From: Escherichia phage PHB12
DNA: 64,000 bases
Sequence record: MK524178.1
Reading direction: 5' to 3' (one strand)
The translations under genes and the position numbers were made by a program. Each line of letters starts with the position of its first letter. Positions within the stretch are counted from its first letter, which is position 1. Shown one piece after another: positions 27,158 through 38,587 of this stretch. The notes beneath the pieces were generated by a model. That model worked only from the letters and a program-made list of their open reading frames with translations. It was not told the origin of the DNA and ran no database searches.

Positions 27158-27466
27158 TCAATTAGAAAATAAATTTATCCAAGATTTTTCTTTAATCAAA
27201 AATGGGTCGGAATTAAACGCCATTAAACTTTGAGTGATTAATCCCTTAAATGGCCCATCAATAAATTCCATTTTGAAATGTGGAATACTAGTCATCAACC
27301 GTGCATTAGGAGCAGTACAAAGAACGTGCTGCCCTGCGAACGGACCTTTAGTCAAACGATATCGTTTAGGTTTAAAATGGTAAATCTCGTAATTTTCTAC
27401 AAGAGCCCTTTTATTGCATACTGGGCTGTTATAACAATACTCAAAAACTTCAATAGTGGTCATCAT
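27158..27466 (-). CDS. hypothetical protein
   Basis: Track ORF trimmed to internal ATG (MMTTIEVFEY...) giving ATGA overlap with the upstream gene. Confidence 0.4.
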   Translation of the reverse strand: MMTTIEVFEYCYNSPVCNKRALVENYEIYHFKPKRYRLTKGPFAGQHVLCTAPNARLMTSIPHFKMEFIDGPFKGLITQSLMAFNSDPFLIKEKSWINLFSN

Positions 27467-28002
27467 TGCATTCCAATCACAAAAAATTGAGGACGAGCAA
27501 TACCGCCGATGCAATATTTGCTTTTGCAGCAGTGCTGTACTGATTTAATATGGACATTGTAAATCTTATCCATATCAGGAGCTTTAATAGGCTCGTCAAT
27601 TATATACAGAATACGAGAAAGCGTTAATCCACGGAATTTAGAACCTTCATTGCCAATAAAACTACGGACAGAATCAGTAAATAAACGGAATCGAATATCA
27701 TCGCTAGAATAACGAGAAAATTCTTTTTTAATGTTGCCAACAGAAATTTTAGCATAAGCTGAAGTATTAGAAAGAACAATAACTGTTCCACCGTCGTACA
27801 GCCAATTAACAGCAAAATTAGTTACTGCGGTCGATTTACCTGATTGTCTGCCGCCGTCTAAACGAAGTGTACAGTACTGCTTGAGTACGTCTTCAAATGG
27901 CGGGATATAACCATTCTTACAAATTTCTTCTACTCTAGCATCAGAATGGTGTGTAAAAGCATTCATCAGGGATAGATAAGGTCCGGTTAAAAATGTTCTC
28001 AT
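27463..28002 (-). CDS. hypothetical protein with P-loop-like motif
   Basis: 179 aa; GGRQSGKSTA resembles Walker A. Confidence 0.4.
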   Translation of the reverse strand: MRTFLTGPYLSLMNAFTHHSDARVEEICKNGYIPPFEDVLKQYCTLRLDGGRQSGKSTAVTNFAVNWLYDGGTVIVLSNTSAYAKISVGNIKKEFSRYSSDDIRFRLFTDSVRSFIGNEGSKFRGLTLSRILYIIDEPIKAPDMDKIYNVHIKSVQHCCKSKYCIGGIARPQFFVIGMQ

Positions 28003-28243
28003 TTAGTTTCTCTTTTAGGTTGGGCTGTTCCGTGGCACATGAATTGTCCATTTCTGTATTTACCCATTACCGCACTTGGGCTCGACCTTATTACAGGTTG
28101 GCGGGAATCCCTCATAGAATCATGAGGTCCAGGTTGTTCCCATGTTATTTGAATGTAAATATTTTTGCCTTAATACTTATACCAGTGTGGCTTCATTAAA
28201 ATTTTTTCATCGAGTCATTTTACCTCTCCAAGTAATTATGAAT

Positions 28244-28273
28244 ATACTATCACAATTTTAGGAGAAAGTAAAC
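28244..28273 (-). promoter_or_regulatory. early promoter GTTTAC-18-TAGTAT with long structured leader
   Basis: GTTTAC at rc of 28268-28273; the nearest downstream minus-strand gene start is at 28002, implying a leader of about 230 nt. Confidence 0.45.
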
Positions 28274-28275
28274 TG

Positions 28276-28578
28276 TTATTTACCTTTAATTACTTTAGCT
28301 GCTTCGATAGCCGCTTGCTGAAGGTCGTCCATAGACATACCGAATTTAGAAGCAAAGTTATCAATTTTCTTTTCGACAGCATTCAAAGGCTTGGCCTGTT
28401 TACCTTCATTAGCGCCAGGAAGAGCGAGAATACGCTCTTTGTCAATATAAAGGCTTACAAGTTTCTTACGGTCTTTATCGGATAAATCATGAAATGAATG
28501 GGCCTTTTTATTTATAGCGGCTTCTAATTTACCTGCACTCACTCGCGCTTCAGTAATAAATTCTTGATATGTTTTCAT
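28276..28578 (-). CDS. ipI: internal protein I (IPI) precursor
   Basis: 100 aa; N-terminal capsid-targeting leader MKTYQEFITEA and body (KLEAAINKKAHSFHDLSDKDRKKLVSLYIDKERILALPGANEGKQAKPLNAVEKKIDNFASKFGMSMDDLQQAAIEAAK) closely match T4 IPI as recalled. Confidence 0.8.
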   Translation of the reverse strand: MKTYQEFITEARVSAGKLEAAINKKAHSFHDLSDKDRKKLVSLYIDKERILALPGANEGKQAKPLNAVEKKIDNFASKFGMSMDDLQQAAIEAAKVIKGK

Positions 28579-28599: not shown

Positions 28600-28617
28600 A
28601 GGCCTAAGTATCGGCCT
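28600..28617 (-). other. intergenic hairpin (AGGCC/GGCCT stem) between two internal-protein genes
   Basis: Inverted repeat AGGCCTAAGTATCGGCCT; no U-run, so more likely a processing/attenuation structure than an intrinsic terminator. Confidence 0.35.
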
Positions 28618-28619
28618 TA

Positions 28620-29198
28620 TTAATTACCACGGGCTGCATTAGCAACGGCATAAGCGTACTGAACATTAGCGTCTTTAAACGTACCTTTAGAGGTGTCTAT
28701 TTCTGCCTTAAAGCCGCCTTTAGCCATAACATCGGCAAATTCTTTACGGAAGGCCATTGCATCAAGACCCTTCCATGATGATTTATGCTTGGCAAATTCA
28801 AGACCTGCGAAGTTGACAGCTTTAGCCAATTTATTATCAATGACCCATTTACCGGCTTTAGGCACAAACTTCGGGCCTTTTTGTTTAGAGAACAGTTTTA
28901 AATTCCAGCGACGAAGATCACTGTCGGCTTTAACAAAAGCTGCGTCTAAGTTACTAGCAACAACATCTTCAATATGAGCAAATTTAAGTCCGTCAACTTC
29001 AATATTTAGATCGTTACGCCAGCGAAGTCCTTCCCAAGCGAAGGCTTTAAAATCAGAAGCTTTTGTGGCTAGATATCGTTCAAGTGGAGCAGTTTTAGGG
29101 TCGAAGCCGTTTCCACCACGATAAGTCCACTCGTCCTTATTAATGCCTTGAGCTTTTCCTGCAAAGGCCTCGGCGATAAATTCTTTATATGTTTTCAT
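28620..29198 (-). CDS. internal-protein-like protein with capsid-targeting leader (IPIII-sized)
   Basis: 192 aa; begins MKTYKEFIAEA (T4 internal-protein leader), then a basic Lys/Ala-rich body. Confidence 0.6.
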   Translation of the reverse strand: MKTYKEFIAEAFAGKAQGINKDEWTYRGGNGFDPKTAPLERYLATKASDFKAFAWEGLRWRNDLNIEVDGLKFAHIEDVVASNLDAAFVKADSDLRRWNLKLFSKQKGPKFVPKAGKWVIDNKLAKAVNFAGLEFAKHKSSWKGLDAMAFRKEFADVMAKGGFKAEIDTSKGTFKDANVQYAYAVANAARGN

Positions 29199-29261: not shown

Positions 29262-29522
29262 TTAAGCTTTACCGCCGGAAATAATTCCGAAGTTGTTAAA
29301 ATCGTATCCAATATCGTCGACATCTACTTTAGGGCTTGCTACAACATAAGCAATTTCACTACGTTTTGCATAGGTGTTGATTTCTTTACCATCGCCACCT
29401 AAGAAAGAATACCCATTACGTTTTAATGAGCCAAAGTCTTCCGCATCACCAATGAAAGCTTTAACTTTAAATTTGGGGTCTTTGGCATCTGCTTCAATGA
29501 TAAATTCTTGATACATTTTCAT
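29262..29522 (-). CDS. internal-protein-like protein with capsid-targeting leader
   Basis: 86 aa; begins MKMYQEFIIEA. Confidence 0.55.
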   Translation of the reverse strand: MKMYQEFIIEADAKDPKFKVKAFIGDAEDFGSLKRNGYSFLGGDGKEINTYAKRSEIAYVVASPKVDVDDIGYDFNNFGIISGGKA

Positions 29523-29530
29523 TTTTTTCC

Positions 29531-29944
29531 TTAGTAAATTGATTTACCATAGTATTTGTACCAAGTCGGACGTTGAGCAATTTTTTCATCTAAGCGTGCT
29601 TGACTTATCGCAATGGACGCTTCGGACGGGACGTAATTATTACGAAATTCTACAGGAATGTCGGAAATATCCTGGACTGTCGTGTCCTTGATTTTGAAAC
29701 CACGTTTCAAACATTCGGTGATTAGCTCGATTTGACGTAAACGTAAAAATTCGAGTTTGTCGTAAAAGAATGTTACGTGACCTGTGCCTAAGATAAATGT
29801 TGGAGAGATTTTAAAATCTTTTACACGTTTACCGTTTTGAACATGTTTACGGACTGCACCAAATACGCGTGGTAATTCACGATACTCAGCCATAAGATGT
29901 TGGTCGGTCAGTTCGGAAACGAGTGTTAAATTGATACGAGTCAT
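29531..29944 (-). CDS. denV: endonuclease V (pyrimidine dimer DNA glycosylase) DenV
   Basis: From ATG 29942-29944: [34 protein letters not shown]... near-identical to T4 DenV as recalled; 137 aa. Confidence 0.85.
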
Positions 29945-29971
29945 AATTTCCTCCAAGTAGTTGATGAATGT

Positions 29972-30002: not shown

Positions 30003-30284
30003 CTATTTTTCTGAAGCGCCCGAAATATATTTTTCAAGACGTTGTTTCATCAGCGAGCCGTTCTTAGCGATTTCTTCCGGTTTATCGCACATACGCAACA
30101 AGGCTTCAAGCTTAACGATATCACTGGTACGTTCAAATTTGCGAGTATCTATCTTACTAGCAAGTTCAGAAATACGTGCTAATAGACTTTCAGCTTCAAC
30201 CAAAGCTGCACCTAGCTTAGTTGCAAATGTGTCAGTAGCTTCGTTAAGAATAGATTCTGATAAAAATTCACTATATGTTTTCAT
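30003..30284 (-). CDS. internal-protein-like protein with capsid-targeting leader
   Basis: Start at ATG 30282-30284 ([11 protein letters not shown]...), ATGA overlap with the stop of e; 93 aa. Confidence 0.5.
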
Positions 30285-30769
30285 ATATACGCTTTCCAAG
30301 TTCCTGTTTTAAATGTTGAGATTACGCGTTTCGCGCGATTAGGTGTCTGACGATACCATTTAGATTGGGCTAGATTTACTGCCGCTTCGTCCCAACGTTT
30401 CTGTTGAAGCATACGAAGAGAATTAGTAAAACCAGCGACGCCTGCTACACCCATTTGGAAGACCATATTGACCAATGCACATCGACGAACTGCATCTAAA
30501 GAATCATATACCGGTTTAAGTTTAGCATTACCCAAGATTCCGCGAACGGCTTTATCAACGTCTTCATTAAATAGCTTTTCAGCCTCATCAAGGGTAATTG
30601 TACCGTTGCATTTACGTCCGATCATTCTGTCAAGTTCAGCTTTAGCTACGGCTAAAGACGGGTTCTTTGTTACTAAATGGCCTATGCCAATCGTCCAAAA
30701 GCCTTCAGTGTCTTTGTATAAAGACAGTCTAAGACCTTCGTCATTACGAAGCATTTCAAATATATTCAT
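30281..30769 (-). CDS. e: lysozyme (endolysin) e
   Basis: From ATG 30767-30769: [32 protein letters not shown]... matches T4 lysozyme as recalled; about 162 aa. Confidence 0.9.
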
Positions 30770-30771
30770 AA

Positions 30772-30795
30772 TACCTCCCACGTTTATAGGAGGTA
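30772..30795 (-). promoter_or_regulatory. gene e leader hairpin sequestering the Shine-Dalgarno, with late-promoter-like TATAAACG inside
   Basis: Inverted repeat TACCTCC/GGAGGTA (30772-30795); minus strand reads TACCTCC-TATAAACG-TGGGAGGTA-TT-ATG. Confidence 0.55.
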
Positions 30796-38349: not shown

Positions 38350-38426
<77 letters not shown>

Positions 38427-38432
38427 CGAATA

Positions 38433-38506
38433 TATGACCCAGACCAGATTCGAACTGGTAACCTTTCCCTTATGAGGGGACTGCTGCTAACCGTTGAGCT
38501 ACAGGG
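38433..38506 (-). tRNA. tRNA with CAT anticodon (Met or lysidine-type Ile)
   Basis: Hand-folded: acceptor GGCCCTG/CTGGGTC (one mismatch), anticodon loop CTCATAA, T-arm ACCAG-TTCGAAT-CTGGT; D-stem has one C-C mismatch. Confidence 0.6.
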
Positions 38507-38587
38507 CCTAAATAACTTTCTATTATGAAAGGCACTTTAGAGCACCTTTGGTAATAGAGGGTATGAATTAATAATAACACATAATTC

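Follow-up and report, generated by a model that had tools for sequence, protein, structure and literature searches.

We analyzed a stretch of 64,000 nucleotides from Escherichia phage PHB12 (MK524178.1; hereafter the window), a T4-type (Tequatrovirus-like) phage, and in particular the 273-nt gap between the stop codon of an ipII-like gene (28276) and the start codon of a vs.8 homologue (28002), both of which lie on the minus strand, as do all genes of the region. The gap was found to consist of an ordinary gene remnant, namely what is left of a second denV, and of a member of a previously unannotated, well-supported phage RNA family, a structured element of 120 nt at positions 28022–28141. We put the probability that these parts are correctly identified, and that the RNA structure is real and under selection, at about 0.8. 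The structured RNA has moved among unrelated virulent phages independently of vs.8, and the reading that fits it best is that of an RNA module with a putative function of its own. The element is more tightly constrained than the surrounding genes, displays clear covariation, and is present in virulent phages and in no cellular genome searched.

A preliminary description of this interval, made from the letters of the sequence, had listed the gap, a promoter-like site, a hairpin, a ribosome-binding site (RBS), several very short open reading frames (mini-ORFs) and a local enrichment in G and C, and had interpreted them as a regulatory leader, a small RNA or a leader peptide. All of these features are present on the minus strand where they had been placed, and structure prediction together with covariation across related phages yielded conserved helices in part of the interval, in agreement with the structured RNA that had been suspected. 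Overall, the interpretation is partly supported.

Conservation of the RNA element

The T4 counterpart of the element (NC_000866, positions 64819–64938) begins immediately after the stop codon of denV, and in T4-type phages the element fills the space from the stop codon of the upstream gene to the RBS of vs.8. Compared with T4, the element of the window was 96.7% identical (116 of 120 positions), whereas identity was 84.8% for vs.8 (68% at third codon positions), 79% for denV, 78% for vs.7 and 92% for vs.6. The central part was detected by blastn in 1,111 of 50,697 phage records, mostly with nothing annotated there; in hundreds of deposited genomes, the element is either unannotated or covered by a spurious small ORF. 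Searching the window with the covariance model R1 gave a single match (67.5 bits, E = 3e-21), and the model rejected coding look-alikes. The stretch that had been described as locally GC-rich (28010–28150) has a GC content of 46.1%, compared with 37.4% for the window, which ranks it in the top 2.8% of same-size windows, and the element itself reaches 50%. It is conservation and covariation, not folding energy, that make the interval special.

Secondary structure and covariation

The predicted structure comprises a three-way-junction core that is common to all phage groups, a 5′ domain, and a 3′ domain that is specific to the T4 group. The parts in the window are as follows (other loci are referred to below by numbers preceded by L).

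28022–28141, minus strand: conserved structured RNA element, 120 nt, 50% GC
28103–28141, minus strand: 5′ domain, with outer helix GGGAA (28141–28137) / UUCCC (28107–28103) around an internal loop and a hairpin
28110–28127, minus strand: hairpin in the 5′ domain, CCUCAU (28127–28122) / AUGAGG (28115–28110)
28058–28106, minus strand: three-way-junction core, from model R1 and pair counts
28062–28102, minus strand: closing helix of the core, (G)CCA (28102–28099) / U28066, bulged G28065, GG(U) (28064–28062)
28085–28098, minus strand: first hairpin of the core, ACCU (28098–28095) / AGGU (28088–28085), loop GUAAUA
28072–28081, minus strand: mini-hairpin of the core, G28081–C28072 and C28080–G28073, with an optional third pair and a loop of 3–6 nt in the family
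28082–28084 and 28067–28071, minus strand: invariant joiners, C-N-A and GGUAA, respectively
28022–28058, minus strand: 3′ domain with two hairpins, the first UACA/UGUG plus GAA/UUC with conserved loop AUGGAC (aligned by eye), the terminal one GCC-ACGGAAC-(A)GC (RNAalifold prediction)

Aligning 47 distinct copies with MAFFT showed the inner three pairs of the closing helix to be formed in every copy, with two to five pair types each; the covariation score was 0.318, compared with at most 0.073 when the partners were slid; none of 500 shuffles reached the observed score. Because the early search patterns had fixed the sequence of the hairpin, we rescanned with its outer pair freed. All new genuine copies (L123, L142, L154 and a second copy in L057) retained the outer pair as G-C, and 45 chance loci were rejected. 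When 50 distinct copies were finally aligned to the model, the hairpin was paired in 100% of them (A-U in 47, G-C in 3), the mini-hairpin was likewise paired in 100% with one double change from C-G to U-A, and the three inner pairs of the closing helix were kept in 50 of 50; the covariation score was 0.347, compared with at most 0.077 for the slid controls. Since G·U pairs are common in the closing helix, it is the transcribed (sense) strand that folds. The loop of the 4-bp hairpin follows the pattern G-U-R-R-N-A across copies, GUAAUA being the commonest form and GUAACA, GUAAAA, GUGAAA, GUAGAA, GUAGCA and GUAGUA its variants.

The hairpin CCUCAU-GAUUCU-AUGAGG (28127–28110), which the preliminary description had singled out, proved to be a helix of this conserved RNA, with a compensatory variant (CCUUAU/AUAAGG) in L035; other variants are GUGAGG in L034 and a shortened loop in L023. 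For 25 T4-group copies, RNAalifold predicted a 5′ helix of five pairs with 8–12 double changes each (GGGAA/UUCCC, AAAGG/CCUUU, AAAGC/GCUUU). It also proposed an alternative mini-hairpin (C-G, G-C, G·U, C-G), which we rejected, as L056, L073, L076, L069 and the second copies of L021 and L057 fit only G-C/C-G with one optional pair. The copies of Vequintavirus and phage Ivi probably form a pseudoknot, in which the 5′ internal loop would pair with the 3′ tail (GUGAGGG/CCCUUAC in L016; CUCCGG/CCGGAG in Ivi).

Two further sequence features of these domains were observed. In the 3′ domain of T4-group copies, GGA recurs invariantly in two hairpin loops spaced about 18 nt apart (AUACAUGGAUGA and CCAAGGAAUGG; window 28044–28051 and 28027–28033, and in type B, for example, L006 1555–1590), and GGAUGAA is also found in the 5′ hairpin loop of KpCHEMY26-type copies; these loop motifs are reminiscent of the consensus of CsrA-binding sites. 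Copies of types B and C (e.g. L006 1455–1490) have a longer 5′ hairpin (CCUCAUGAAC...CUCUGAGUGAUGG) in which GAA faces AGUG, resembling a loop-E or sarcin-ricin-type bulged-G motif; type A, which includes this window, is without it.

Occurrence among phages and genomic context

The T4-type carriers are phages of Escherichia, Klebsiella, Shigella, Salmonella, Enterobacter, Yersinia, Citrobacter, Pectobacterium and Kosakonia. The other carriers are Vequintavirus (rV5-like), the N4-like Klebsiella phage KpCHEMY26 (Schitoviridae), the 45-kb phage Ivi and uncultured contigs. The element is absent from complete E. coli genomes, and among 185,579 bacterial and archaeal species (GTDB, one genome per species) a strict pattern gave no match. 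A loose pattern gave 24 matches in the same genomes, approximately the number expected by chance, all of which scored at most 23 bits, compared with at least 40 for real copies. The core has been transferred horizontally between virulent phages that belong to four or more groups.

At 25 loci outside the T4-type phages, no relative of vs.8 was found within 2.5 kb of the element, and vs.8 was accordingly rejected as an obligate partner. Across lineages, the neighbours of the element share neither a Pfam family nor a flanking protein. The non-T4 copies lie in untranslated stretches, and in most of these loci tRNA genes are located on the same strand within 45–720 nt: in L070 the element lies between two tRNAs, in L073 it follows a tRNA-Ser by 45 nt, and in KpCHEMY26 it comes after seven tRNAs, in an unannotated stretch of about 0.9 kb that closes at a strong intrinsic terminator. 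In EmilHeitz and Ivi, the element ends just before a strong sigma-70-type promoter.

Several side observations were made at these loci. In the KpCHEMY26 group (L012 10995–11130; L118 2369–3371), the 0.9–1 kb without annotation after the tRNA cluster holds, in addition to the element, sub-threshold matches to transfer-messenger RNA (tmRNA) models about 400 nt beyond it (33.7 and 20.8 bits), and further non-coding RNAs may be present there. The 430-aa protein that follows (L118 3372–4664) has a sub-threshold match to the Pfam C-terminal domain of ribosomal protein L7/L12 (E = 0.0019; 18.9 bits, the cutoff being 25.9). In Vequintavirus tRNA clusters (L003 2582–2680, L029 and L068), a gene of 97–99 nt is assigned a 4-base anticodon (atcc) by ARAGORN and is called tRNA-Lys in the record; it may be an intron-bearing or otherwise unusual tRNA. 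Some T4-type phages carry two tandem copies of the element (L021 9020–9180, L039 362–522 and L057 5092–5251), the second of which has a variant core (GGUC-AGCCCGCGGC-GGUAA). A weak partial blastn match upstream of ipII in phage VIPECOOM01 (L119 2–57; 78.6% over 56 nt), truncated by the end of the locus, may be a further, diverged copy; the covariance model gave it no score.

The ORF within the element and the start of Vs.8

A frame of about 37 codons that overlaps the start of the downstream gene in an ATGA had been reported in the preliminary description. Such a frame is indeed present inside the element.

27999–28115, minus strand: ORF of 38 codons (MRDSRQPVIRSSPSAVMGKYRNGQFMCHGTAQPKRETK), with an ATGA overlap with the vs.8 start
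28009–28014, minus strand: Shine–Dalgarno (SD)-like AAGAGA of the vs.8 homologue
27463–28002, minus strand: vs.8 homologue, 179 aa, with the P-loop motif GGRQSGKS (phrog_1488), a neighbour of the RNA element that lies outside it

We also considered that the conserved DNA might be coding, either for a leader peptide that is translated or, as the T4 annotation has it, for the genuine N-terminus of Vs.8. The first 29 residues of the annotated Vs.8 of T4 (NC_000866; 219 aa) are those of the 38-codon ORF, some relatives likewise annotate a long Vs.8 of 219 aa, and the ATGA overlap is a layout typical of translational coupling. We nevertheless regard a coding role as highly improbable. The frame is in phase with vs.8 in 1 of 43 distinct T4-group arrangements, that of T4 alone, and on this ground the ORF is considered not to be coding. 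Its start is equally unconserved: the ATG is replaced by ATA in L035 and by GTG in L034, and copies of types B and C have no start codon there. Within one subtype, the core and the conserved start (M-R/K-T/F-F-L-T...) are 62, 64, 66 or 71 nt apart, so that every phase is represented, and phage NHEP29 has a +2 indel. No PHROG match was found for the ORF. The near-invariant DNA starts 26 nt 5′ of the T4 ATG, immediately 3′ of the denV stop codon; this ATG is located in a hairpin arm and has no SD sequence, and the substitutions in the helices are compensatory rather than synonymous. The 7-nt indel that separates T4 from the window is in T4 part of a tandem CTTATAGAG duplication, which brings the upstream frame into phase, so that the fusion of the two frames in T4 is attributable to a local tandem duplication.

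The conserved start of Vs.8 corresponds to codon 41 of the T4 gene (NC_000866 64792) and is preceded by GAGAAG. The T4 annotation (64792–64912 region) is thus probably 40 codons too long, with the true start at codon 41 of the record, and the element has there been mistaken for coding sequence.

A gutted denV and its early promoter

The remainder of the gap (28142–28275, minus strand) contains the following features.

28244–28273, minus strand: T4-type early promoter, TTTACT-N17-TAGTAT with TG in the spacer, read from the sequence
28211–28229, minus strand: 5′ stump of denV, RBS GGAGAGG (28229–28223) and ATGACTCG (28218–28211), read as mini-ORF MTR-stop
28149–28210, minus strand: 3′ stump of denV, the last ~70 nt, ending in ...WYKY-stop, with mini-ORFs MKKF-stop (28210) and MKPHWYKY-stop (28196)

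Two blastn blocks explain this arrangement. Window positions 28300–28211 are 98.9% identical to the ipII–denV junction of phage VIPECOOM01, covering the end of ipII, the promoter, the RBS and the first 8 nt of denV, and positions 28219–27950 are 93.3% identical to positions 819–1087 of the VIPECOOM01 locus (L119), covering the last ~70 nt of denV and everything downstream. The blocks overlap by 9 nt in the window. In VIPECOOM01, whose gene order is that of T4 (ipII-denV-vs.8), they are separated by ~338 nt that belong to the annotated endonuclease V (L119 473–889). In many relatives, too, the match to the leader is split into two parts that lie about 350 nt apart and flank denV, and an unsplit match, i.e. 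the deleted arrangement, is found in about ten phages (HX01, NHEP29, SP1 and others). This comparison shows that 28142–28275 is a dead second denV, of which the promoter, the RBS, the first 8 nt and the last ~70 nt were kept and about 338 nt were lost by internal deletion. The GGAGAGG RBS and the short ORFs that had been noted in the preliminary description are thus present, but as denV debris, since they fall in two blocks from which a piece of the endonuclease V gene is missing; as remains of a deleted gene, they do not represent a leader peptide.

The promoter at 28244–28273 departs at one base from the early-promoter consensus of T4 and PST (TTTACW-N17-TAYWAT; PMC4122927), and its counterpart in relatives serves denV. 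It is plausibly real, as first described; a strict promoter scan of the window did not list the site. The promoter region also resembles the region upstream of the window's own intact denV. This intact gene is located 1.3 kb upstream of the remnant, having moved in among the internal-protein genes, and the deleted copy occupies the ancestral T4 position. The pair offers a fresh case of turnover by duplication and deletion in the hyperplastic internal-protein region, where reshuffling has left behind a promoter that would now feed a different gene; the surviving denV early promoter would drive the remnant, the RNA element and vs.8.

Gene neighbourhood

Upstream of the gap, the window contains the following genes.

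30281–30781, minus strand: lysozyme gene e
30003–30299, minus strand: internal-protein gene
29531–29956, minus strand: denV, intact
29262–29522, 28620–29198 and 28276–28578, minus strand: three further internal-protein genes, with the start MKxY(Q/K)EF

Downstream, the vs.8 homologue is followed by vs.7 and then by the GrcA-like vs.6. A capsid-targeting-type N-terminus, MKxY(Q/K/S)EF(I/L), begins all four genes at 30003–30299, 29262–29522, 28620–29198 and 28276–28578, which indicates that the internal-protein set is expanded and that its order differs from that of T4 (ipIII, ipII, denV). Between two of these genes (28600–28617, minus strand), a hairpin AGGCCGATACTTAGGCCT is followed by ATTTACATTT; with TTTACA after the hairpin, it resembles a PeSL-type terminator/promoter cassette. 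A string of this cassette, TATTTACATTCAAATAA, recurs at 28148–28160, just 5′ of the RNA element, and in L022 and L024. ARAGORN found only two tRNA genes in the window (Arg-TCT and Met-CAT, 38352–38508, minus strand).

Possible functions of the element

Several of our observations weigh against a selected, autonomous RNA. Most carriers are closely related T4-type phages, so that the independent lineages are far fewer than the records. Folding energies equaled those of shuffled sequences (z = –0.05, 0.00 and +0.25 for three sense-strand constructs; +0.52 for an antisense construct), and thermodynamic stability, with z near 0 on both strands, was rejected as evidence for an RNA. The hairpins of the 3′ domain are conserved without covariation, the terminal one is invariant, and the window copy has a C·A mismatch in it. 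The pseudoknot of the Vequintavirus and Ivi copies could not be extended by eye to T4-type copies. Copies were gathered with patterns that fix invariant bases, so that the invariance is partly by construction and more divergent members fall outside the sample. Finally, in T4-type phages the element is almost always located directly 5′ of vs.8, where it may have a role in cis.

If the element is an autonomous module, it would be transcribed from the surviving denV early promoter within the vs.8 message, and would act as a self-contained unit and not as a vs.8 switch; it may also be freed as a stable small RNA, like the RNAs of tRNA clusters. The invariant junction and the hexaloop would then serve as a binding site or decoy offered to a protein or to the translation machinery. 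We propose this mode of action tentatively, as the most likely of those considered but still short of probable. The main alternative to it is a processing role, in which the element would be a self-cleaving ribozyme or a site for RNase P, E or III that cuts early or tRNA-operon transcripts at cistron borders and stabilizes the products. Phage ribozymes flanking tRNAs and the RNase III sites of T7 are precedents for such a role, the conserved core is small with invariant junction bases, and the copies lie exactly at a cistron boundary in T4-type phages (from stop codon to the next RBS) and inside tRNA operons elsewhere. However, no known ribozyme family matched, even at permissive thresholds, and in a nested fold like that of the hepatitis delta virus (HDV) ribozyme the would-be P1 strand has no partner, by eye. 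The distance of 45–720 nt to tRNA genes means that the element does not define tRNA ends, which further counts against processing, and we consider this role unlikely.

A further alternative is a cis-regulatory leader of vs.8, in which the RNA would respond to a ligand or protein as a riboswitch, attenuator or translational operator and thereby set the expression of the gene; an attenuator and a translational operator had been among the readings offered at the outset. Such a leader accords with the position of the element, which in about 40 of the 43 distinct arrangements of the T4 group immediately precedes a vs.8-type gene, with a last hairpin that ends about 8 nt before the SD-like AAGAGA, and with invariant junction bases that look like a ligand- or protein-binding pocket. 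The attenuator found no support, as a scan of 28003–28275 revealed no terminator-like site after the element, and neither did the translational operator: the SD sequence AAGAGA and the AUG are unpaired in the minimum-free-energy and centroid folds (z near 0), the spacing to the start codon is variable, and the core occurs without vs.8 in other phage families. In L019, L044 and L048, an internal-protein gene comes next instead of vs.8, and in Vequintavirus, Ivi and KpCHEMY26 what comes after it is a promoter or further non-coding RNA. Tandem double copies in L021, L039 and L057 also argue against a switch, as does the lack of any riboswitch match in Rfam; in keeping with this, a test for a riboswitch or attenuator found neither an expression platform nor a single downstream gene across lineages. 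We thus consider regulation of vs.8 in cis to be quite unlikely as the function of the family. Even less can be said for an element acting at the level of DNA without RNA function, such as a PeSL-like recombination cassette or scar, or a homing or recombination target. The element does lie in the most recombinogenic part of T4-type genomes, beside a fresh deletion, it is duplicated in some phages and it has moved between unrelated ones, and PeSL cassettes are known to shuffle the hyperplastic region (PMC4122927). Against this, it includes no promoter and is more than a simple terminator hairpin, and it occurs once in 64 kb, whereas PeSLs are multi-copy. Its helices change in a compensatory manner, its G·U pairs would be A·C on the other strand, and its orientation is always that of the flanking genes and tRNAs. 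These results render a purely DNA-level role very unlikely.

If the tight constraint, the covariation and the distribution among virulent phages hold, the T4 copy would provide a genetically tractable entry to RNA-based phage functions.

Comparison with known RNAs and cassettes

The T4 tRNA cluster comprises eight tRNA genes together with RNAC and RNAD. The element resembles RNAC and RNAD (T4 stable RNA species 1 and 2), as well as GOLLD and ROOL, in being phage-encoded, non-coding, conserved and located with or beside tRNA genes. In contrast to RNAC and RNAD, the T4-type element lies outside the tRNA cluster, between denV (or an internal-protein gene) and vs.8; genomic proximity to tRNAs is seen in non-T4 phages. 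No similarity was apparent by eye between the element and the RNAC probe sequence given in PMC9697503, and the element is much smaller than GOLLD and ROOL. According to a 2010 review of T4, no riboswitch or trans-acting small RNA had been characterized in this phage, and the roles of RNAC and RNAD were unknown (PMC3014915); neither this review nor a T4 omics paper (PMC9697503) mentions the locus. A search of the literature for the literal sequence found no paper that prints the element, and an anonymous listing is possible among the approximately 10,000 candidates of a 2023 catalogue (PMC10690425).

Searches against Rfam 15 gave no relevant match at E ≤ 10 (with 2.5 kb and with 141 nt alone) or at E ≤ 1 (with seven divergent loci); the matches seen were chance snoRNA or miRNA hits and true tRNAs elsewhere. 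ARAGORN detected no tRNA or tmRNA at the element in the window or in 25 other loci, and no match to clan CL00001 was obtained there. For an HDV-like or theta ribozyme, inspection by eye found no conserved upstream complement to CGAGCCC in T4, Vequintavirus or L073, and the HDV-type models of Rfam gave no match. Likenesses to RNase P RNA (GUGCGGUAA), the HDV ribozyme (CGGUAAUGG), PK2 of tmRNA and the UGUNR motif of the signal recognition particle Alu domain appeared to be short and non-colinear.

The PeSL cassettes of T4-type hyperplastic regions were reportedly described by Arbiol et al. in 2010. A PeSL is a short terminator-like stem-loop plus an early promoter, present in many copies per genome (Comeau et al. 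2014; PMC4122927). The interval shares with these cassettes a conserved intergenic sequence, the same kind of region and an association with indels and gene shuffling, and the promoter at 28244–28273 matches the PeSL promoter consensus. The element itself was rejected as a PeSL, being a 120-nt RNA of several helices without a promoter, present once in the window and found in non-T4 phages as well.

We further compared the core with ribosomal RNA (rRNA). The series C-N-A-G-C-(3–6 nt)-G-C-G-G-U-A-A of the element equals positions 518–533 of E. coli 16S rRNA (CCAGC-AGCC-GCGGUAA), i.e. the 530 loop; the motif occurs once in the rRNA operon, at this site, and in 26 of 3000 shuffles, the likeness having been noticed post hoc. 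The mini-hairpin pairs would correspond to pairs 521–528 and 522–527 of the accepted 16S model, and both the element and the apex of helix 18 are closed by a helix. In contrast to helix 18, the element has an additional hairpin where 16S rRNA has U516–G517, and its mini-hairpin loop is variable, whereas the AGCC of 16S is invariant and takes part in the 505–507/524–526 pseudoknot; with a loop of variable sequence and length, there is no sign of a corresponding pseudoknot. We rejected homology to helix 18 over the full length of the element, as model R1 scored at most 6.3 bits in the rRNA operon, and any mimicry would therefore be partial. Similarly, the GUAAUA loop on a Watson–Crick stem recurs at 23S positions 1093–1098 (helix 44, the 1095 loop), the sole such hairpin in the E. 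coli rRNA operon, for an estimated chance expectation of about 0.07 per 5 kb; however, the hexaloop of the element varies, and its order of helices is unlike that of the 58-nt L11-binding domain. On the strength of these short matches, the core might mimic the 16S 530 loop, possibly together with a 23S 1095-like hexaloop, so as to bind, titrate or divert a host factor that recognizes this rRNA site, an idea that we hold to be doubtful; virulent phages would then carry the core, often among tRNA genes, for this purpose. Candidate targets would be toxins or defence nucleases that attack the ribosome, enzymes that modify or assemble rRNA, and translation factors. Were this the case, the element would represent an RNA decoy for host takeover or counter-defence that has been hidden for decades within an annotated ORF of T4.

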